Source of the DNA: an uncultured Candidatus Bathyarchaeia archaeon
GTDB taxonomy: Archaea; Thermoproteota; Bathyarchaeia; TCS64
Reading direction: 5' to 3'
Length of the DNA stretch: 38,730 nt
Assembly (NCBI GenBank): GCA_964347405.1
Contig: CAYFYM010000055.1
Span: forward strand, 1 to 38,730
The notes under the pieces are model-generated. The model had not been told where the DNA came from. It did no database searches and was given only the letters and a program-made list of their open reading frames with translations. Positions 15,084-38,730 of the stretch are shown piece by piece. The number at the start of each line of letters is the position of its first letter. Position 1 is the first letter of the stretch. Made by a program: the position numbers and the translations under genes.

Positions 15084-15479
15084 ATGTTTTATATATCTAG
15101 ATTCCAAAACAATTATGTGATGTTATCAAAAGAAAATAAATCGAATGATATTAGATACCCAAATAATGAGATTAACAGAAACGTGCACTTAAGGGGTGAG
15201 GAAAATTCATACATGACGAGTTTCGTTGGATATGACAACGTGATTGCACAAGATAAAACATATGTATTAGACATTGGTTTTAAATCAATCAAGTACGTGA
15301 GTGACGAACTTCAACTAAAGACAGTAGAAATCATAAGTGATCTAATAGAATTAGGAATACCTGAAAGATGCCTGGATGATATATTATTAGAAGGGATAAA
15401 AAAATACTATGAAACAATGTGCATAGAAAGAAGCCAGAATTACTTGATTAACATTATTAGAGATAATAAAGGAGAATAA
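15084..15479 (+). CDS. Hypothetical protein encoded in strongly AT-rich DNA, directly upstream of tfb
   Basis: A 131-codon open frame in ~30% GC DNA, where stop codons should be frequent. It ends 3 nt before the tfb ATG. No family recognised. Confidence 0.5.
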   Translation: MFYISRFQNNYVMLSKENKSNDIRYPNNEINRNVHLRGEENSYMTSFVGYDNVIAQDKTYVLDIGFKSIKYVSDELQLKTVEIISDLIELGIPERCLDDILLEGIKKYYETMCIERSQNYLINIIRDNKGE

Positions 15480-29187: not shown

Positions 29188-30414
29188 ATGTCGTTGACGA
29201 TAATCAATGCAAGGCTGGGCTCCTCCGAGGAGACGTACAGCATAGAGATCAGGGGCGGTGTCATCGAGGATATAGTCCTCGGGGCTTCGGGGGGCGACGA
29301 ACTCATCGACGCCGGGGGGAGGCTGGTCTCCCCGGGGCTGGTGGATCCCCACATGCATCTCGACAAGGCGTTTCTCTCGGAGCGCTACGCGAACAGGACG
29401 GGCACCCTGGAGGAGGCCATAAGGGTGATGGGCGAGGCCAAGAGGAGGTTCACCGTGGAGTCCGTGGCGCAGCGAGCCGGGAGGCTGGTGGAGATGGCGT
29501 CGGCCCACGGGACCACGCTGATACGGACGCACGTGGACGTGGACACCATCGTTGGCTTGACGGGGCTAGAGGCCCTGCTGGGGGTCAGGGAGGCCTACAG
29601 GGGCCGCGTCGATCTGCAGATAGTCGCCTTCCCGCAAGAGGGGTTGGAGCAGGAGGGGGCGGTCTCCCTGCTCGAGGACGCCCTAGAGATGGGCGCCGAC
29701 GCGGTGGGGGGCATACCTGCCCTGGACGAGGACCCGGAGGTCCACATAGACACAGTTTTCGAGCTCAGCGGCAGGCACTCGGTTGACGTGGACATGCACA
29801 TAGACGAGTCGGAGTCCCCGGATGACCTGACCCTCGAATACTACGCGGACAAGGCGTCAAGCGTCCACGGCGACGCCAGGATGGTCACCAGCCACTGCAG
29901 CTCGTTATCCGTAGTCGAGGACGAGAAGGCCGCCCAGGTCATCGATAAGGTACGTGAAGCAGGGATAGGCGTGGTGACGCTGCCTTCAACGAACCTGTAC
30001 CTGCTGGGGAGGAACGGCTACCCCAAGACGAGGGGGCTCACCCGGGTCAGACAGCTCCTCGACGCGGGCGTCCAGGTGCTCTATGGCTCCGACAACGTCC
30101 GCGACCCCTTCAACCCCTTCGGTAACGCGAACCTCCTGGAGATAGGATGCATACTGGCGCACGCCGACCACATGGGCGGCGGCGAGGAGTTGCGGCGGGT
30201 GTTCAGCATGGCCTCGGAGAGACCCAAGACGCTCCTGAGGGACGACCGCGGCCTGTTCGTAGGCTCCAGAGCCGACTTGGTGGTGCACGACGCCCTCGAC
30301 CCCATCGACGCCGTCGTGTCCCACAGGCGGCCCCTCTGCGTCATCAAAGACGGATCCATAGTGTCCCTGGACGGGCGTCAGGCGCCTGAGCCTGTTATGA
30401 AGTCATCGAAGTAG
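29188..30414 (+). CDS. CodA-family amidohydrolase (cytosine deaminase / AtzC / creatinine deaminase-type)
   Basis: 408 aa, collinear with E. coli CodA from memory. Motifs: PGLVDPHMHLDKA, IRTHVDVD, DLQIVAFPQEG, DVDMHIDE, VTSHC, YPKTRGLTRV, GSDNVRDPFNPFG. Confidence 0.88.
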   Translation: MSLTIINARLGSSEETYSIEIRGGVIEDIVLGASGGDELIDAGGRLVSPGLVDPHMHLDKAFLSERYANRTGTLEEAIRVMGEAKRRFTVESVAQRAGRLVEMASAHGTTLIRTHVDVDTIVGLTGLEALLGVREAYRGRVDLQIVAFPQEGLEQEGAVSLLEDALEMGADAVGGIPALDEDPEVHIDTVFELSGRHSVDVDMHIDESESPDDLTLEYYADKASSVHGDARMVTSHCSSLSVVEDEKAAQVIDKVREAGIGVVTLPSTNLYLLGRNGYPKTRGLTRVRQLLDAGVQVLYGSDNVRDPFNPFGNANLLEIGCILAHADHMGGGEELRRVFSMASERPKTLLRDDRGLFVGSRADLVVHDALDPIDAVVSHRRPLCVIKDGSIVSLDGRQAPEPVMKSSK

Positions 30415-31871
30415 GGCACCTTTACCGGCACGGCGAACTTGGTGAAGATGCTGGTTATTATGGCCTCCCCGATGTCTAGGCTCGATATGTTGTGCTGCTC
30501 GCTGGAGAGGTCCTGGGAGCTGCTGTCGATGAGGGTTTCCGTCTCAGACTTTAGCTCGTTTCCGAGGATGATCTTGGTGCACAGGTTCGTCAGTATGGGC
30601 TTGGGGATGACGCTGGTTAGCTGGGTGACCGCCAGCAGCCCTATGTTGAACTTCCTCCCCTCCCTCGCGATGAGGCTGTATATGCTCTCTCCCTTGGTCC
30701 TTATGGTCTCGGCGGCCAGCGCCCTGGGGGCCTCCTCTATAACGATCGTTATGGTGGGGAGGTTATCCAGCGAGCCCTCGGCCTTGCTGCACAGGTACCT
30801 CTCGAAGACGGTGTGGGCGATCATGCTGCCTATCAACAGCTCGGCCTCGTCCACGAGCCGGATGGTGTCCACTATGACCGTCTTCCCGTCGATGAGGTCG
30901 TCTATCATCTGGTCGAGGGTATCCAGCCCGCTTTCCTGGCTGAATATCTGGCTGTGGCAGCGTATCACGCTCCCCGTGTCGAGGTATATCCCCAGCAGGG
31001 ACTCGAGTTTCCTCTTTATAGAGGCGAAGTGTCTCCCCTCGGTCTCCTCGTACTCGCCCCTCACGATGCCCTCGATCCACTCGTCCCCATTCCTGCCGTG
31101 GTAGCTCTTTATGACGCTCATCTCCGTCTCGGTCAGGCTCACAACACCCTCGAGGTGGCTGGGCTTGATGGATCTGAGGTTGATCACGAGCCCCTTCCCC
31201 CCGTCCGCCTGCACAGGGCTGTAGTACACCAGCCTCTCGTCCGAGCGGGGGTGGTTTTTCAGCCCCGCGCCGTGTCTCCCATAGTACTCGTCGTGGGGGT
31301 CCAGCACCAGGCACCCGTAGGAGCCCTCCTTCAGGCCCATGATCCCCCAGAGCAGGACCTTAACGAGGTTGCTCTTCCCGCGGCCGGTCATGGCGGGCAC
31401 AAGTATGTGGTGGGGCAGCAGGTCATCGGCGTCGAGATAGACCCCCACGTCGAGTACCTTGGAGCCGCTTCTCACGTAGCCTAGGAAGAGGGGGTTCTCG
31501 GGCTTCGAGAGAAAAAAGAGGTCCCTGGAGGTCATGCCTCGCACCATGGAGAACATCTGGGGCAGGGCCTTCGCAGACACCAGCTTACCCTCCTCGTCTA
31601 CGGTGGCTATCTCCTTGGCTACGGCGATGACGTACTCTCTCCCCTTCGAGAAGTAGTTCTGGATCTTTTCCCCTTGGAGGCCAATCTCCGCTATGAACTC
31701 CCTGGACTCGGCGGATATCTGACTGCCGAACCTCAGATCGTACACCTGAAGAAGCAGCGATTGATCTTCGCCCTCTACGACGAGGAGCTCACCAAGCTCC
31801 AGCTTCACATCGTTCCGGGCCCTGATCAGGAGGGCTCCGTACTCCCCGCCTGTGATGATCCCTCGCTCCAA
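30378..31871 (-). CDS. HerA/DUF87-type P-loop ATPase (FtsK-HerA superfamily)
   Basis: Walker A PAMTGRGKSNLVK, Walker B ITIVIEEAPR, and EGRKFNIGLLAVTQ. The track start 31919 lies inside the AT-rich promoter. TTG 31871 lies 21 nt after TTTATATTATATTAAA (31893-31908). The 3' end overlaps the convergent CodA-family gene by 37 nt. Confidence 0.8.
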   Translation of the reverse strand: MERGIITGGEYGALLIRARNDVKLELGELLVVEGEDQSLLLQVYDLRFGSQISAESREFIAEIGLQGEKIQNYFSKGREYVIAVAKEIATVDEEGKLVSAKALPQMFSMVRGMTSRDLFFLSKPENPLFLGYVRSGSKVLDVGVYLDADDLLPHHILVPAMTGRGKSNLVKVLLWGIMGLKEGSYGCLVLDPHDEYYGRHGAGLKNHPRSDERLVYYSPVQADGGKGLVINLRSIKPSHLEGVVSLTETEMSVIKSYHGRNGDEWIEGIVRGEYEETEGRHFASIKRKLESLLGIYLDTGSVIRCHSQIFSQESGLDTLDQMIDDLIDGKTVIVDTIRLVDEAELLIGSMIAHTVFERYLCSKAEGSLDNLPTITIVIEEAPRALAAETIRTKGESIYSLIAREGRKFNIGLLAVTQLTSVIPKPILTNLCTKIILGNELKSETETLIDSSSQDLSSEQHNISSLDIGEAIITSIFTKFAVPVKVPYFDDFITGSGA

Positions 31872-31920
31872 ACTGCTCGGATATACACCCGATTTAATAT
31901 AATATAAACAGAAAAACACT

Positions 31921-32226
31921 GGTGTAGAAAACCACGGCGTCCACCCTGACGCTAATGTTGTCCTTCGTGATGGCTTCCTGCGTCGGGATGTCCATGGTCC
32001 TCACCCTCTTGTCTAGGGAGGTCGCCTTCTCGATCACGGGGATCGTGAGGTAGAGCCCGGCTTTCTGGAGCCTGTTGTATTTACCCAGTCTCAGAACGAT
32101 CGACTCATCCCACTCGTTGTTGACGTGGATCGAGGCTGCCAATAACCCGATGACGATGACGACAAGGGCCCCGATAACTGCTATATTTACCATTATATCT
32201 CGGTTAACTATTCCCCAGCGAAACAT
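31921..32226 (-). pseudogene. Truncated stomatin/SPFH (band 7) gene: N-terminal TM helix plus the first ~70 residues of the SPFH domain only
   Basis: ..NEWDESIVLRLGKYNRLQKAGLYLTIPVIEKATSLDKRVRTMDIPTQEAITKDNISVRVDAVVFY matches archaeal stomatins. Homology stops at about 31921 and a stop follows 9 codons later. The likely true start is ATG 32193, preceded by a TTTAAATG box. Confidence 0.7.
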
Positions 32227-32960: not shown

Positions 32961-33168
32961 TCATGACTCCACGAATATCATCGATACGGGGCAAAGGTCC
33001 TCCGCCGTATGGGCGCAGCCCTCCAGCGAGCCATCAAACATTCCTCTGGTTATATCGCCGTCCACTCTGTGAGTCCCTTTTATCTGAGACTTGCCATCAT
33101 CCTCACTGGCCTCGAATGTTTCCGGGCAGTCGGTGTGACAGTTACAGCATATTATGCAGTTCTCTCAT
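32961..33168 (-). pseudogene. Small single-cluster-type ferredoxin-like ORF without an in-frame start codon
   Basis: My reverse-strand translation gives ENCIICCNCHTDCPETFEASEDDGKSQIKG...GCAHTAEDLCPVSMIFVES-stop. This frame is preceded by TGA. The only nearby ATG (33168) is in another frame and reaches a stop after 8 codons. Confidence 0.4.
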
Positions 33169-33496
33169 GCCACAACCATATTCAACTAAATCCAAACAAG
33201 CCCAACATACTTTAGCACAGCAAACACCGCCCCCCCCAAAAAAAAAACGCTTATAGTCAGTAGCCGACTACGAGTGAGACATCGACTCGCGTAAACCCTC
33301 ACCGTGTGGTGGACTGGGGGTATCCGCCTAAAATTTTAATCTAAACGTACCAGTATAGCGTAATGATTTAAACAGAATATAATGGCTTCTTTTTTTTGAT
33401 AAGAACCTTTTTTATTGTTTATAATTCACATTTTTTATTATTTTATTCCATTTAAGGTTGTGTTCGCTCACAGTAATTTTTTAAATTCTGTACTAA

Positions 33497-33522
33497 AGTT
33501 TAAAATACTTATTATATAAACT
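33497..33522 (+). promoter_or_regulatory. Candidate TATA boxes (AAGTTTAAAATAC / TTATTATATAAAC) ahead of the tail sheath gene
   Basis: They sit at the end of a ~280-bp spacer that looks roughly three-quarters A+T by eye (33260-33540). TTG start at 33541. Confidence 0.4.
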
Positions 33523-33540
33523 TAGATTGAGTGTGTTACT

Positions 33541-34899
33541 TTGGTTAGAGTAATACCTGGTGTAGAGGTTAAAGTAATCAAAGAGATCATTCCACCGGCA
33601 CCATATCCCTCTGGAGTCGTTGGTATGATGGGGACTGCTGAGAAGGGTCCTGAACTCACCCCAACCCACTTGGGGAGTTGGAGGGAGTTTGCCGACCTAT
33701 TCGGTGACAGTCCTGAATATACCCTGACACAGAGTGTCAAACAGTGCTTCCAGAACGGGGTCTTCGAGGTCGTTGCTACTCGGATAGTGGGGAAGGGTGG
33801 CGAATATTCCTCGGCCAAGTTGAAGGACAGTGAGAAAGCGGACACCGTGGAGTTGGTGGCAAAGGCCATTGGCGAAGCTGGCGATGACATAGGCTTTTCG
33901 ATTGAGCCTGGTACGACGGAGAACACGGTCAGGTTACTGCTGAGTGATGGCGTGGTCTTCGAGGTATTCGACGACCTCGACATGAATAGGAGAAGCGACA
34001 AGTACTTGGTGAAGTACGTCAACGAGAACTCGAAGCTCGTCAAAGCCAATGATCTAAAGTCTAAGACGAAGGCACCGGGCAACTACCCTGTCCCAGTTGA
34101 GGGAAAGCTGAAAGGCGGAAAGCCTCCAGGCGACCCAACTGAGGAGAGCTTTGAGGCGGCCCTCGAGAGGCTGGAGGCTGAGGCTGAGGTCGACATGGTG
34201 TGCGCCTGCGAAGTTACGGATCCCAAGGTCCACGCCCTTATAGAGGCCCATTGCGTCAACATGAGTAATTGGGCCATGGGCAGGATCGGCATCGGGTCTG
34301 TGGAGGAAGGAGAGGAAATCAGCGACATCACCAAGAGAACGGAGGTGCTCGCAAGCGACAGATTCATACTAGTGGCGCCCCACGGTATCGCCGGCGCTGT
34401 AGCCGGCCTAATCAGCAAACTGAGTTACTACGAGTCACCTACCTTCAAGGCCTTGACGGGTCTCTCAGAGCTGGAGCAGAAATACACCCCCTCCCAGGCA
34501 AGGCAGCTACTCAATGCCGGAATCCTGCCCGTATGGGCACAGAAGGGCAAAGGACTAATCGTCATCAAGGGAATCACGACAAGTAAGGAGCAGATCAACG
34601 TTACCCGGACGACGGACCACGCGGTGAGGCTGGTAAAGTCGACGGGCGACCAGTTCATCGGAACCCTAAACAACGCCACGGGCAGAGCCGCCCTCAAGGA
34701 GAAGATCACGGAACTGATGCTACGGATGGAGAACGAGGGTGCGATCGTGCCGAGCACAGACGGTTCAGAGCCAGCTTTCATTGTGGATGTATACAGCTCA
34801 CAACTCGACTTCGCTCAGGGAATAGTCAGAGTCGACTTGGCCGTGAGGCCTGTCCGGGCGATAGACTACATCTACGCGACCATAACGGTCCAGGCATAG
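33541..34899 (+). CDS. Contractile tail sheath protein
   Basis: 452 aa. N-terminus IPGVEVKVIKEIIPPAPYPSGVVGMMGTAEKGP..THLGSWREFADLFG is the classic sheath opening. C-terminus ..GIVRVDLAVRPVRAIDYIYATITVQA is typical of sheath C-domains. A tube gene follows. Confidence 0.85.
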   Translation: MVRVIPGVEVKVIKEIIPPAPYPSGVVGMMGTAEKGPELTPTHLGSWREFADLFGDSPEYTLTQSVKQCFQNGVFEVVATRIVGKGGEYSSAKLKDSEKADTVELVAKAIGEAGDDIGFSIEPGTTENTVRLLLSDGVVFEVFDDLDMNRRSDKYLVKYVNENSKLVKANDLKSKTKAPGNYPVPVEGKLKGGKPPGDPTEESFEAALERLEAEAEVDMVCACEVTDPKVHALIEAHCVNMSNWAMGRIGIGSVEEGEEISDITKRTEVLASDRFILVAPHGIAGAVAGLISKLSYYESPTFKALTGLSELEQKYTPSQARQLLNAGILPVWAQKGKGLIVIKGITTSKEQINVTRTTDHAVRLVKSTGDQFIGTLNNATGRAALKEKITELMLRMENEGAIVPSTDGSEPAFIVDVYSSQLDFAQGIVRVDLAVRPVRAIDYIYATITVQA

Positions 34900-34912
34900 G
34901 AGGTGATGTGGA

Positions 34913-35308
34913 GTGTCATTAATGATTGTATCTGCGGCGAAGAGCAAGGTTACCGTAGATGGCAACGAGGTCGAAGGCGTCCAGTCTATAGACTTCAAGG
35001 TACGTAGGAGACAAGCAGACATAGAGGCCATAGGAGTAGCAGAGCGCATAGGAATAGAGTCGGGACAAGTGATTGTAACAGGCTCCCTCAGGATCAGCTC
35101 AATTAACACAGCGCTAGACGATTTCCTTTATCCGGTAGACCCACCGGGCTTCAACATGGTCTTGACCCTCAACGTGGCTGAGGGGACACAAGTCAGACAG
35201 ATAACCTTCGACGAGTGTTACCTCGATGACAAGACCTTTGAGATGACGGCGAATGGCGTCGGTGTCACGGCATACAACTTTACTTCAACTAGGGTAAGGG
35301 AAGAATAG
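34913..35308 (+). CDS. Tail tube protein
   Basis: 131 aa, directly after the sheath gene. GGAGGTGA (34899-34906) lies 6 nt before GTG 34913. Beta-rich pattern KVTVDGNEVEGVQSIDF..VTGSL..FTSTRV is consistent with tube proteins. Confidence 0.65.
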   Translation: MSLMIVSAAKSKVTVDGNEVEGVQSIDFKVRRRQADIEAIGVAERIGIESGQVIVTGSLRISSINTALDDFLYPVDPPGFNMVLTLNVAEGTQVRQITFDECYLDDKTFEMTANGVGVTAYNFTSTRVREE

Positions 35309-35339
35309 GGAGTAACCTAGCTAAGAGAAAGGGACCGAG

Positions 35340-35726
35340 ATGAGTGGGACGAAGAGGCTTACGAAGGAGGACATCCTTAAGGGCAAGGAAAGACACGAGC
35401 CGCTGTACGTCGAGGAATACGACGCAGAAGTCGTGATAAGACCTCTGACTGATGGCGAACTCACCAACATCTTCTCCCTAATCGGAAACGTCCCACTCAA
35501 CGAGGATGGCACCCCAGACATAGCAAGTATGGACGCCACGAAGAACTTCGAGGCCCTAAGGATGGCTGCCTCCATGGGAATGGTGGAGCCGAACCTGACG
35601 AAGGAAGATGTCTCTGATATGAAGTTCGGGGTACCTGAGTTCATCGGCATGAAGGTACTAGAGATCAGCGGAGTAACATCGAGTGAGGAAGCTAAAAAAA
35701 AAGCTAGAGATGGAGGAGTTCGTTAA
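35340..35726 (+). CDS. Tail assembly chaperone candidate (G/E-like ORF)
   Basis: 128 aa, located between the tube and tape-measure genes. Acidic, with VVIRPLTDGEL. It ends just after an A9 tract that overlaps the next ORF. Confidence 0.55.
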   Translation: MSGTKRLTKEDILKGKERHEPLYVEEYDAEVVIRPLTDGELTNIFSLIGNVPLNEDGTPDIASMDATKNFEALRMAASMGMVEPNLTKEDVSDMKFGVPEFIGMKVLEISGVTSSEEAKKKARDGGVR

Positions 35727-35910
35727 GAGCCCTGACGGTCTTGAGCTCTCAACCCTCTGCCTCGACTACGGGTACAAACTCGCTGACAGCCCAGGGGACC
35801 TCACACGGGATCAGATCAACTTCCTTATTTTTGCATTGTCGCATCGACTAAAGCAGATGAGTTACTCCAGGCCAACAGAGAGCGACACCACAAGGATCAT
35901 ATTCGAGTAG
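35683..35910 (+). CDS. Overlapping +1-frame ORF (T/E'-like extension of the chaperone)
   Basis: A 75-codon ORF in the +1 frame that overlaps the previous ORF by 44 nt across A9 (35694-35702). It has no promoter or SD of its own. Confidence 0.45.
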   Translation: MRKLKKKLEMEEFVKSPDGLELSTLCLDYGYKLADSPGDLTRDQINFLIFALSHRLKQMSYSRPTESDTTRIIFE

Positions 35911-35942
35911 ATCAACGTGAACCATTCAGAGGGGAACCTCAC

Positions 35943-38360
35943 ATGAGCCGCTTCGAGACGCTCGTCAAGAAAACCTTGGAGATGCAGAGAGCCAGCGCCT
36001 ACGCTCTACCCGTACTTGGACCTAACAAAGCCATCTCCTCAATGATAAACAAGTTATACGAAATAGGCATCCCCGACAATCTTAACACCTTGGCTTTAAG
36101 AATGGTCGGAATAATGAGGCGAGTCGCTCGACTGCAAGTGGCCATCTCAACGCCAACGATACCCGCCATTCTATCCCAGGAGCCAGCTTACAAGGTAGCT
36201 GAGTTCGAAGAGGCGTATCCAAGAATTGAGGAACCCCAAAAATTTGTCGTTACCAGCAGGTTTGATCCCCTAACCAACATCATCAGGAGAATGGTAAGAA
36301 GCTTCCTTAGGCGCCCACGTAGACCAGAGCGCGGGCGCGCACCCGAACCACTTTCCATAAAAAAGGAAAAAGGATACACAATCCCCGAGTACATACAGAG
36401 AATCATAGCAGCGATACCGCCGTTGGCGTATGTTCCCCCTGAATTGAGACACAGACCGGAGATCGAGAAGCCTGAATTAATCGCTGAAACCCGACTTGAG
36501 GAAATATCAGTTCCCAAGAGTGTGGACGTCCCAGATAGGTACTATGAAATCGTCGAGGAATACGAGGTCCCTGGTAAGAGAGTCCCTCTGATGCCCAGGG
36601 CGGAACTCTCAAGGGCGAAAACTCCCTCTCTGAGGATAACCCCCCAAGTGAGAATAGTCCGCCAGACGTTCCAAGACCTCGCTAAATGGGCCGCCGGCGT
36701 GAGCGCCGCCCAGCCAGCCGTCACGAAGATGGGTCTCGTCGATAATTACGTGGACATGCAGGCATCGATCCACGATGTCGTCAGCCAGCAGATAGATGTC
36801 CGGAAAATCAGACCAACATATGATTGGAGGCCGCTAATTCTGGAGGCGACGAAGATCGCCAGCGAGCAAGTGTTCGCATGGGGTAAGGATGAAATGGAGG
36901 CCGGCCGACCAGGGGTCTTTAGGGGGCCGCAGATCGAGAGGGCAGTGGAGGCTGTAGAGGGCCTCGCTGAGGACGAGCTCTCCCCCTTGGTCACTGACAT
37001 ACTGACGAGAGAGGCGGAGAGCAAGGCCGCCCTGGTCTCCTCCGAAGTGGAAAGAGTTACACGACAGCTGGCCGAGGAGGCGGCCGAGACCTACAGGCAG
37101 GCATTAACCCAGTTGATGCCGGTACACCGCCGGGCGGCTGTCAAGGAGCTGGTCCACGCGCCCGGACTCAAGGAGCTTGTGACCAAGAAGCTCCGCACCT
37201 CCCTTGAGATAATAGGCATTAGGGAAGCAATCTCGGAGGAGGTCAGAGAACGAGGGATGGAGTTAGGCAAGAAACATCCTCTTCACGAGTATATCGCGAG
37301 GGTGGCGAGGCTTGCCGGGGTCGCAAGGCCCGAGGTTCCCACGCATCCTGTTGTGGAAGAGGATATGGTACCTGCCACATCGCCTTTCCACCCGCTTCAC
37401 GAGTACATCACAATGGCATCGAGGCTTGCCGGGGTCACAAGGCCCGAGGTTCCCACGCATCCGATCGGAGAAGAGGATATGGTACCTGCCACATCGCCTT
37501 TCCACCCGCTTCACGAGTACATCACAATGGCATCGAGGCTTGCCGGGGTCGCAAGGCCCGAGGTTCCCACGCATCCTGTTGTGGAAGAGGATATGGTACC
37601 TGCCACATCGCCTTTCCACCCGCTTCACGAGTACATCACTAGGGTGGCGAGGCTCGCCGGGATCACACGAGTAGAGCTGCCTGCCCCCATGGAAGAATTG
37701 ATGGCGCCGACCCCAACGCCGTTACGCCCTCTGCAAGACTACATCGACATCACTGCCAAGCTTGCAGAGGTCGCTAAGTTGGAGGAACCCATAATTTCGA
37801 TCGAGGAGGAAGTGGAGGAGATCGCCGGGGCCCCCCGGCACCCCATAAGGGCTTATCTCGATCTGGCATCCAGGTTAGGGGAATTCATGAGCGCACGCGC
37901 AGCCGCTGTTTATGGGATAACCGCTGCTCATGTTCCCGAGGTGGAATATCTGGGTGGGAAGCTGGAAGTCTCCAAGGCCTTCGATTACATTAGCGTATTG
38001 AAGGAAATCGTCACTTCAAAGGTGGAGGCCGAGAAGGTTTTGACGGCATCCTTGAGCGGAGTGGTTTCCAGCCTGCTGGAGGTCCCCCTGGGGGAACAGG
38101 CACCTGAGGTAGTTGGCCTGGAGTTCCCTGTATCGGTGCCGAGCCCGAGGCTTCTGGACATGGTGTCCGTGCTCTCGCGTGTCGAGACGATCCCCGGCAC
38201 GCAGAGGCCTCCATCGGTCAGGCGGGAGCGTGTCGTGGAGAGGCGGCGCCCCATAGATATAAAGGTCGAGCCAAAGATAGGTGATATCGACCTCAAAGAG
38301 CTGGAGAGGAAGATAGCCCGCATCCTGAGGGAAGAGGCTCGAAGGTATGGTGTGTACTGA
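35943..38360 (+). CDS. Tape measure protein candidate (805 aa) with internal tandem repeats
   Basis: Largest ORF of the module, in the canonical position after the chaperone pair. Helix-rich and charged. Contains 38-aa tandem repeats. Its stop overlaps the next start (TGATG). Confidence 0.55.
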   Translation: MSRFETLVKKTLEMQRASAYALPVLGPNKAISSMINKLYEIGIPDNLNTLALRMVGIMRRVARLQVAISTPTIPAILSQEPAYKVAEFEEAYPRIEEPQKFVVTSRFDPLTNIIRRMVRSFLRRPRRPERGRAPEPLSIKKEKGYTIPEYIQRIIAAIPPLAYVPPELRHRPEIEKPELIAETRLEEISVPKSVDVPDRYYEIVEEYEVPGKRVPLMPRAELSRAKTPSLRITPQVRIVRQTFQDLAKWAAGVSAAQPAVTKMGLVDNYVDMQASIHDVVSQQIDVRKIRPTYDWRPLILEATKIASEQVFAWGKDEMEAGRPGVFRGPQIERAVEAVEGLAEDELSPLVTDILTREAESKAALVSSEVERVTRQLAEEAAETYRQALTQLMPVHRRAAVKELVHAPGLKELVTKKLRTSLEIIGIREAISEEVRERGMELGKKHPLHEYIARVARLAGVARPEVPTHPVVEEDMVPATSPFHPLHEYITMASRLAGVTRPEVPTHPIGEEDMVPATSPFHPLHEYITMASRLAGVARPEVPTHPVVEEDMVPATSPFHPLHEYITRVARLAGITRVELPAPMEELMAPTPTPLRPLQDYIDITAKLAEVAKLEEPIISIEEEVEEIAGAPRHPIRAYLDLASRLGEFMSARAAAVYGITAAHVPEVEYLGGKLEVSKAFDYISVLKEIVTSKVEAEKVLTASLSGVVSSLLEVPLGEQAPEVVGLEFPVSVPSPRLLDMVSVLSRVETIPGTQRPPSVRRERVVERRRPIDIKVEPKIGDIDLKELERKIARILREEARRYGVY
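37275..37616 (+). repeat. Three near-identical in-frame 114-bp tandem repeats, followed by 2-3 degenerate units to about 37950
   Basis: Units at 37275, 37389 and 37503 each encode HPLHEYI(A/T)(R/M)(V/A)(A/S)RLAGV(A/T)RPEVPTHP(VV/IG)EEDMVPATSPF. Later units read HPLHEYITRVARLAGITRVELP.., RPLQDYIDITAKLAEVAKLEEP.. and HPIRAYLDLASRLGEF.. Confidence 0.95.
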
Positions 38361-38730
38361 TGAGCATAGAGCTCGATAAGATACCCCTGATAAAGCACAC
38401 CCGGGACGACGACACCGGGAAGACGAAAGTGATCAACAGCGTCTACAACGTGAAGGTCGAGGAGAGGCGGAGCGTCGTCGAGCACAAGATACCGGGGATG
38501 GAGGGGGGAGTGCTCCAGGACCTTGGGAGGGAGCCTGTCCGCATCTCCTTCGAGGGCGTGATCTACGGCGAAGGGGCGAAGGAAGCCCTGAAGAACATCA
38601 GGTCGAAGTTCAAGGCCGGTAAACCCGTTCCCTTCTCGTCGGACGTCTCGGGCGTGGCCGAGGTCACCGACGTTCTGATTGAGAACCTCCAGGTGGACGA
38701 TATGGGGGGGATGCCGAACAACTACAAGTA
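38360..38730 (+). CDS. Baseplate-region protein resembling the N-terminal domain of Mu gp43 (DNA circulation protein). The 3' end lies beyond the window.
   Basis: Absent from the track (no stop in the window). My translation from ATG 38360 reads MSIELDKIPLIKHTRDDDTGKTKV..VEHKIPGMEGGVLQDLGREPVRISFEGVIYGEGAKEALKNIRSKFKAGKPVPFSS. The H.(I/Y)PG..G..(Q/E)DLGR....(I/F).G.. pattern recalls gp43-N. Confidence 0.5.
   Translation, partial: MSIELDKIPLIKHTRDDDTGKTKVINSVYNVKVEERRSVVEHKIPGMEGGVLQDLGREPVRISFEGVIYGEGAKEALKNIRSKFKAGKPVPFSSDVSGVAEVTDVLIENLQVDDMGGMPNNYK

Follow-up and report, generated by a model that had tools for sequence, protein, structure and literature searches.

The contig CAYFYM010000055.1 (GenBank assembly GCA_964347405.1) of an uncultured Candidatus Bathyarchaeia archaeon, a complete record of 38,730 bp referred to here as the window, breaks off at its end inside a module of contractile tail genes. 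We estimate a probability of about 70% that these genes are the 5′ third of an ~11-17 kb chromosomal cluster for a headless contractile tail of the phage Mu type resembling the R-type tailocins, a system predicted from its genes. Most likely, the cluster encodes a domesticated puncturing particle, for which no archaeal example has been described so far, because related loci with readable flanks contain no capsid or packaging genes. A preliminary description of the window had offered two readings, a headless particle similar to tailocins or contractile injection systems (CIS) and a rearranged provirus. The former is now supported and the latter largely excluded, on the basis of the relatives and not of the window alone.

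The first gene of the module encodes a 452-aa tail sheath protein. This assignment had been proposed earlier and agrees with matches to the Phage_sheath_1 Pfam profiles and to PHROG profiles. The protein has more than 1000 homologues, and an alignment of the gene starts shows that its TTG start codon is kept in most relatives. The next gene had been described as a 131-aa tube protein coupled by a Shine-Dalgarno (SD) sequence, which is borne out by the GAGGTGAT motif 5 nt before its start, by Phage_tube_2 domains in its homologues and by a contractile-tube fold. The tube protein of the window has no Pfam match of its own, and among 24 homologues, 15 match Phage_tube_2 (PF18906) and 5 match PF09393. 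An AlphaFold (AF2) model of this protein, with a moderate predicted local distance difference test (pLDDT) value of 72, gave Foldseek matches in the PDB with template modelling (TM) scores of ~0.65 and E-values down to 3e-06. The top matches were Hcp and the tubes of diffocin, phage 812, PVC, AFP, phiCD508 and Mu (9khy, 9ki1). Sequence and profile searches of the PDB produced chance-level matches only for the tube, the tape-measure candidate, the gp43-like protein and two proteins of related loci (215 aa and ~230 aa) that are described below.

The remaining genes of the module in the window are a pair of chaperone open reading frames (ORFs), a tape-measure candidate and a gene related to Mu gp43. 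The preliminary description had likened the N-terminus of the last protein to Mu gp43 and had noted the overlap of its start with the preceding stop (TGATG). Both observations are correct, with the start at position 38360 and a match to DNA_circ_N (PF07157) at 1.8e-06 and 28.7 bits, above the cutoff of 21. The same protein matches DUF6046 and the baseplate hub family phrog_184, its full-length relatives have 231-485 aa with a CarboxypepD_reg Ig-like C-terminus, and it is called baseplate-proximal. For the 805-aa tape-measure candidate, the ORF and its repeats were confirmed, and position, size, repeats and variation in length fit the assignment, but the protein matched nothing in Pfam, PHROG or the PDB. 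Both of its termini are kept in relatives, where the length ranges from 455 to 951 aa, and further decaying copies of the 38-aa repeat are visible in the translation. In Mu, the tail module runs from the sheath (L) and tube (M) through the chaperones and the tape measure to gp43 to gp48, and the head genes precede the sheath. The gene order of the archaeal family is that of Mu gp39 to gp48. The Mu-like order initially noticed is present in the window, and the relatives are collinear through the baseplate genes.

About 35 related loci (labelled L001 and onward) were gathered by protein-guided scans and neighbourhood look-ups, the data being fragments of metagenome-assembled genomes (MAGs). They come from Bathyarchaeia, anaerobic methanotrophic archaea of group 1 (ANME-1), Methanoperedens and Methanocellales, and those closest to the window module are from Bathyarchaeia MAGs. 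Sheath, tube, chaperones A and B, tape measure and gp43-like gene follow each other in the same order, with intact ORFs. Beyond the point at which the window ends, Pfam and PHROG profiles identify a Phage_GPD hub, a Phage_base_V spike, a Sheath_initiator/GP46 gp25-like protein, Baseplate_J and Tail_P2_I. Thus, the hub, spike and gp25/J-like wedge that were to be looked for downstream are present in the relatives. They are followed by a gene for a 215-aa protein and by a ~230-aa gene, which is the last one in several loci. The distant locus L036 (IMGVR_UViG_3300045996_004455) has a P2/pyocin-like permutation of the same gene set, with the baseplate block (hub through 227-aa and 259-aa genes) placed before the sheath block and the gp43-like gene inverted. 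Near-identical modules are also found under the MAG names 'Patescibacteria group bacterium' and 'Krumholzibacteriaceae bacterium' (L001, which is DATLAV010000049.1; protein P0286), and these bacterially labelled contigs are probably mis-binned.

The absence of head genes was examined on both sides of the module. Upstream of the sheath gene, ORF listing and profile searches revealed archaeal host genes only over 33.5 kb, and the profile searches detected no capsid, portal, terminase, packaging or integrase genes in positions 1-33,500 of the window, in agreement with the preliminary description. Four relatives have both flanks resolved and are headless. One of them is a single 62.9-kb contig (L025+L034, 76% sheath identity) on which the module lies between a DegT aminotransferase gene and S-methyl-THD/hydantoinase genes. 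In L004, genes for succinyl-CoA ligase, NUDIX and NUBPL/FeMo-co proteins lead into the module, and in L033 (a 111-kb contig) and L038 (a 337-kb contig) it is located among host genes. More than 12 different host contexts were found directly 5′ of the sheath gene, including NurA-HerA, altronate dehydratase, amidase, aldehyde:ferredoxin oxidoreductase with topoisomerase IB, PolB/TetR/AsnC, ALAD/NosD and ilv genes. The readable flanks of these relatives (the four two-sided loci and the more than 12 upstream contexts) were free of terminase, portal, capsid and integrase genes, so that wherever flanks can be read the contiguous head genes and integrase expected of an ordinary provirus were not encountered. 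A scan of IMG/VR with single sequences gave no match, and an alignment-based scan retrieved three relatives, all of them tail-only contigs. A complete tail set without head or replication genes is found in the relatives with both flanks resolved; the window displays the upstream side only.

HerA-like ATPases are found near the sheath gene in two unrelated contexts, singly in the window and, in L001 and L020, as part of a NurA-HerA pair that stops 120 bp short of the sheath gene. This recurrence may be a coincidence or a shared hotspot. A link between the tail module and HerA-type ATPases was considered and rejected, as the HerA proteins of the window and of L001/L020 are divergent and other contexts lack HerA.

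The genes of the cluster are under purifying selection. Relative to homologues in related loci, the ratio of nonsynonymous to synonymous substitution rates (dN/dS) was 0.075-0.13 for sheath, tube and chaperone (0.08-0.10 for the sheath, ~0.09-0.13 for the tube and ~0.08 for the chaperone), 0.10-0.26 for the N-terminus of the gp43-like protein and 0.34 for the tape-measure candidate. Values of about 0.1 argue against decay.

Table 1. Features of the window and of related loci (L numbers; positions are those of the respective contig)
Feature	Position	Strand	Remarks
HerA-like ATPase	30378-31919	-	single, beside Band_7 fragment
Band_7/stomatin fragment	31894-32226	-	truncated to first ~70 profile positions
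Orphan ORF, 128 aa	32496-32882		
Ferredoxin pseudogene (Fer4_15)	32961-33179	-	start codon present, in-frame TGA at codon 5
AT-rich spacer	33257-33540	+	GC 0.32; between ferredoxin pseudogene and sheath gene
Box TACTAAAGTTTAAAATACT	33491-33509	+	19 nt, 32-50 nt 5′ of sheath start
Tail sheath, 452 aa	33541-34899	+	PF04984 3.3e-14, PF17482 1.2e-07, phrog_279 1.6e-41 (full length)
Shine-Dalgarno GAGGTGAT	34900-34907	+	5 nt before GTG start of tube gene
Tail tube, 131 aa	34913-35308	+	homologue profiles and fold match
Tail assembly chaperone, short product, 128 aa	35340-35726	+	phrog_344 1e-3, phrog_14268 5e-3 (weak)
Second chaperone ORF	35683-35910	+	+1 frame in the window
A9 slippery run	35694-35702	+	joins both chaperone frames
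Tape-measure candidate, 805 aa	35943-38360	+	position, length, repeats
Tandem repeat, 114 bp (38 aa), 3.4 copies	37281-37667	+	inside tape-measure gene
Mu gp43-like (DNA_circ_N/DUF6046), N-terminal 123 aa	38360-38730	+	TGATG overlap; contig end cuts gene
NurA-HerA pair, L001	6822-9881	+	
Five-gene island, L007	5934-11854		
Trio island, L002	14462-17582		
Trio island, L011	7295-10357		
Trio island, L029	16548-19186		
Zinc-ribbon/Ig-like/large repeat proteins, L004	20642-21235		
Zinc-ribbon/Ig-like/large repeat proteins, L031	6116-9851		
Zinc-ribbon/Ig-like/large repeat proteins, L038	11469-13037		
Zinc-ribbon/Ig-like/large repeat proteins, L034	10688-17051		
~230-aa closing gene, L033	20288-21001		
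~230-aa closing gene, L038	10632-11327		
~230-aa closing gene, L036	6350-7129		
~230-aa closing gene, L034	17239-17928		

The chaperone ORF located between tube and tape measure is conserved in 29 loci, every one of which has an A8-A10 run at the corresponding site. A chaperone pair overlapping at a slippery tract had been recognized from the start. The A9 run and a weak match to phrog_344 are in line with it, but the second ORF of the window is in the +1 frame and not in the -1 frame. Joining the frames takes a -1 shift in 24 loci and a +1 shift in the window and in L006-L009, four independent assemblies of the same clade, where one G after the A-run is missing and the second frame is +1 for this reason. 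The predicted 189-aa fusion is otherwise the same in the +1 and -1 clades, and it is this fusion that slippage at A9 would produce. A universal A-run with either frame downstream hints at slippage serving both, for example transcriptional slippage on A9.

The spacer in front of the sheath gene had been called AT-rich and promoter-like. Its low GC content (0.32) was confirmed, whereas conservation in relatives is restricted to the last ~50 bp. This part contains the box TACTAAAGTTTAAAATACT, which is identical in 12 loci with otherwise unrelated DNA further upstream. For copies whose sheaths share 87% identity or more, the onset of DNA homology is abrupt and lies at TACTAAAGTTTAAAATACT. Most of the more distant loci have a related element ending in AAAATTTAAAATAC or GATTTAAAT, with the AAAATTTAAAATAC-like element at the same distance from the sheath gene. 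They also have a purine-rich stretch that resembles an SD sequence, and their start codon is mostly TTG. From these features we infer that the box is an archaeal promoter of the transcription factor B recognition element (BRE)/TATA-like type. Homology between copies begins exactly at the box, as if the cassette travels with its own promoter. A search for attachment site (att)-like direct or inverted repeats around three complete modules (L004, L025+L034 and L033) found only chance matches of 10-11 nt, and no recombinase was recognized at the copies.

In many loci, the gp43-like gene and the hub gene are separated by a variable island. The closest relative that continues beyond the gp43-like gene (L007, 95% sheath identity) carries five genes there, encoding OmpA/PG_binding_1, Zn-dependent phospholipase C, TPR, reprolysin-like and PG_binding_1 proteins. 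A trio of PG_binding_1 (~218 aa), reprolysin-like (~500 aa) and TPR (~290 aa) genes also occurs in L002, L011 and L029 and can have either orientation. In an archaeal system, one would not expect peptidoglycan-binding domains. The phospholipase C and the reprolysin-like, hence metalloprotease-like, protein are among the toxin-like products. PAAR genes are present in L025/L034, L027 and L038, that is, not in every locus. Judged by sequence, effector delivery or killing is suggested by the toxin-like and PAAR genes embedded in the clusters, and bacterial targets are a speculative reading of the peptidoglycan-binding domains. Furthermore, proteins with a double zinc ribbon and Ig-like repeats (Big_1, Invasin_D3, CarboxypepD_reg) border or interrupt the module in several lineages, as do very large CarboxypepD_reg and Kelch repeat proteins. 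These zinc-ribbon/Ig-like and large repeat proteins could be fibres, anchors or immunity functions.

A structural model of the 215-aa protein shows a long N-terminal helix and a beta-sandwich, with weak Foldseek matches (TM 0.3-0.4) to carbohydrate-binding-module (CBM), jelly-roll and fibre folds, and a role as receptor-binding protein is our guess from this model. Nearly all of its homologues with a source name are labelled archaeal, including one (WP_230741165.1) from the cultured methanogen Methanooceanicella nereidis CWC-04. The ~230-aa protein has no Pfam or PDB match. Judged by its position, its gene is a candidate for the tube/sheath terminator and could hide a divergent cap. Small ORFs directly 5′ of the sheath gene, including the 128-aa orphan of the window, were considered as the missing terminator/completion genes and discarded, since they are mutually unrelated.

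The host genes upstream of the module include those for formate-dehydrogenase/Nuo-like subunits, permeases, TFIIB and ion exchangers, an AllG/AllH/AtzD cluster and amidohydrolases, and no tRNA or Rfam match was found in the window. The TFIIB gene marks the contig as archaeal. Nearer to the sheath gene are the HerA-like ATPase, the truncated stomatin gene (the Band_7 fragment) and the hypothetical gene (the 128-aa orphan) of the preliminary description, followed by a ferredoxin pseudogene. The latter had been regarded as a start-less remnant; it is a pseudogene, but its start codon is present and the reading frame is interrupted by a TGA at codon 5. Together with the truncated Band_7 gene directly left of the module, it resembles a rearrangement scar. 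The statement that the tail genes do not differ obviously in composition from the flanking genes did not stand, because their GC content at third codon positions (GC3), 0.58-0.68, is as low as in the lowest host genes or lower (0.70-0.86 in most host genes). One 131-aa ORF without a Pfam match (15084-15479, + strand), directly 5′ of the TFIIB gene, has a GC of 0.295 and a GC3 of 0.30 compared to 0.66-0.86 in the genes of the contig. It may be of foreign origin or, alternatively, AT-rich DNA that is non-coding.

Based on these genes, the following mechanism can be proposed. The host transcription machinery would start ~10-20 nt before the weak TTG start codon, and slippage on the A9 run would yield a short and a long chaperone, which would hold the tape measure. 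The baseplate would nucleate on hub, spike and tape measure, and tube and sheath would polymerise on the baseplate. The tape measure would set the length of the tube. By the rule of thumb from phage lambda, each tape-measure residue corresponds to ~1.5 Å of tube, and the 805-aa candidate would give a tube of ~120 nm. Upon contact, contraction of the sheath would drive the spike-tipped tube through the envelope of a neighbouring cell. Without a head there would be no DNA to deliver, and the particle would therefore kill by puncture or by delivery of spike- or PAAR-associated toxins, with toxin cargo coming from the variable island that follows the gp43-like gene. The particle may be released or may act while bound to the cell. 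We further propose, as a tentative extension, an archaea-specific, Mu-like and ATPase-less tailocin lineage that spread horizontally (Bathyarchaeia, ANME-1, Methanoperedens, Methanocellales and others) as a cassette starting at its own promoter, with exchangeable toxin cargo, peptidoglycan-binding modules and A-run slippage in the -1 or +1 direction. If this is true, it would be a weapon of wall-less or S-layer archaea fired at bacteria.

The module could also be the tail part of an ordinary or split provirus whose head genes lie beyond the contig end or elsewhere and which makes complete myovirus-type virions. We consider this unlikely. The window ends inside the module at position 38730 with its downstream side unseen, and the gene order is that of Mu, a complete virus; however, Mu-type head genes precede the sheath, where the window has 33.5 kb of host DNA, and host genes are found on both flanks in four relatives. 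Likewise, three relatives are listed as viral contigs in IMG/VR, but these contigs hold tail genes only. The GC3 of the tail genes, which is below that of most host genes, would fit a provirus, whereas no integrase, tRNA or att-like repeat was found in the searches given above and the headless layout recurs over several archaeal lineages. A decaying remnant of an old provirus without present function is highly improbable. The pseudogenised ferredoxin and truncated stomatin genes at the left border suggest a rearrangement scar, and the frame relation of the chaperones is altered in the clade of the window. Nevertheless, this +1 variant is fixed in five independent assemblies with the same fusion protein, all ORFs are intact in ~35 independent loci with dN/dS of ~0.1, and the promoter-like box, the TTG start and the slippery run are all conserved.

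There is also very little probability that the cluster belongs to the Afp/PVC-type extracellular CIS (eCIS; phage-like protein-translocation structures, PLTS; cis1-16) already catalogued in archaea or to the CIS of haloarchaea that is similar to type VI secretion systems (T6SS). No locus examined (clusters and neighbours) has an AAA+ ATPase, a DUF4255 protein or two gp19-type tubes. Instead, there is one Phage_tube_2-type tube, the slippage chaperone is phage-style and precedes the tape measure, hub (gpD-like) and spike (gpV-like) have a gene each, and a DNA_circ_N protein is encoded. In favour of eCIS membership are the headless state, the PAAR genes of some relatives and the toxin-like neighbours, and PLTS clusters have been reported in ANME archaea including the ANME-1 type (PMC9012536). 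The best PDB sequence match of the sheath profile is Cis2 of Halogeometricum borinquense (9EZM), but this match covers only residues 25-134 (E = 5e-13).

Several observations weigh against the headless, tailocin-like particle that we prefer. The window stops in the fifth tail gene, and its baseplate genes and downstream headlessness are therefore extrapolated from relatives, the nearest of which with two readable sides has only 76% sheath identity. As the data are MAG fragments, head genes could still be encoded far away in the genome. The tape measure was assigned from position and size only. In the clusters, we identified neither a tail terminator or cap nor a function for lysis or release, and likewise no membrane anchor and no clear fibre. 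Specifically, no holin/endolysin-type genes were recognized in or beside them, where archaeal release functions may be unrecognisable. In addition, the copies lie in many different contexts with no recognisable recombinase or repeats.

Compared to Mu-like myoviruses, the archaeal cluster has the same order from the sheath to the P2-I-like gene, including the two-frame chaperone, DNA_circ_N, gpD, gpV, GP46/gp25 and Baseplate_J. In contrast to them, it contains no head, packaging, transposition or lysis genes and no terminator/completion genes before the sheath, and it has a BRE/TATA-like element as well as cargo islands and PAAR inside the baseplate block. Among 50,697 phage and archaeal-virus records, one partial match of 32% to the sheath was found, and no archaeal virus matched it at E <= 1e-5. 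The J-like protein shares at most 27% identity with proteins of bacterial and haloarchaeal myoviruses (Halorubrum, Haloarcula, Natrialba). Archaeal tailed viruses, including haloarchaeal myoviruses and the Bathyarchaeia viruses Fuxivirus and Kunpengvirus (PMC10848311), have the host domain and ancestral tail proteins in common with the cluster, but they encode an HK97 capsid, portal and terminase (PMC10848311), none of which is present in it.

Afp/PVC-type eCIS (PLTS) likewise provide headless contractile particle genes in archaea with PAAR, toxin-like neighbours and no lysis cassette (PMC4122934; PMC9012536). However, the archaeal cluster lacks their AAA+ ATPase and DUF4255 cap as well as the duplicated gp19-type tubes and the fused VgrG, and it has a phage-type slippage chaperone instead. 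In PLTS, the AAA+ ATPase was described as 'always' present, usually paired with a DUF4255 protein, and there are generally two gp19-type tube genes (PMC4122934, Sarris 2014). Neither an AAA domain nor DUF4255 was found in the Pfam assignments of genes in or beside the clusters, and the one tube gene is of the Phage_tube_2/DUF2001 type. Another archaeal contractile system is the T6SS-like CIS of H. borinquense (PMC11566945), which acts against neighbouring cells (PMC11566945) and whose sheath Cis2 (9EZM) is the top, weak and partial, PDB match. It differs in that it has cis1-16 in full, with an ATPase, as well as a conserved membrane anchor, and is related to eCIS of Bacillota, whereas no anchor was recognized here. 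No T6SS TssB/TssC, ClpV or TssJLM was found in the Pfam assignments of the loci, whose only sheath protein is of the Phage_sheath_1 type. Passing mention has been made of sheath homologues in MAGs of Bathyarchaeota (PMC9230969), and PLTS/eCIS have been reported in ANME, methanogens and haloarchaea. Full-text searches of the literature did not turn up any account of tailocin-like clusters of the phage type in archaea. Since CIS surveys deliberately filter out loci without the ATPase (PMC12210884), clusters of this kind may have been missed. The 'ANME-1-type PLTS' (PMC9012536) may overlap with the present family.

R-type tailocins (R-pyocins, diffocin) are also encoded by chromosomal clusters for headless contractile tails of the phage type, which include a tape measure and chaperone but no eCIS-type AAA+ ATPase, and the diffocin tube is among the best structural matches of the archaeal tube. 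Unlike the archaeal cluster, in which none of these was identified, tailocins have lysis cassettes, dedicated regulators and clear fibre genes. In pyocins, the genes are ordered as in P2, starting with the baseplate, and the embedded toxin-like and PAAR genes of the archaeal cluster are more typical of eCIS and T6SS. To our knowledge, tailocins are known only from bacteria, and every CIS known in archaea belongs to the Afp/PVC (eCIS/PLTS) type, including one that works like a T6SS in haloarchaea. By its gene content, the cluster probably is a headless phage-type (R-tailocin-like) contractile system outside both eCIS and T6SS. If true, it would represent a new class of cell-to-cell weapon or delivery device in Bathyarchaeia, in the methane-oxidising ANME and Methanoperedens and in methanogens. 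Bathyarchaeia are among the most abundant sediment archaea, and interspecies interactions in such communities are central and poorly understood; the embedded peptidoglycan-binding and toxin-like genes suggest antagonism of archaea versus bacteria. The conserved promoter border and the dual-frame slippery site offer tractable questions on cassette mobility and recoding in archaea, and the cultured M. nereidis CWC-04 would make the idea of a tailocin lineage testable, if the full cluster is present there.

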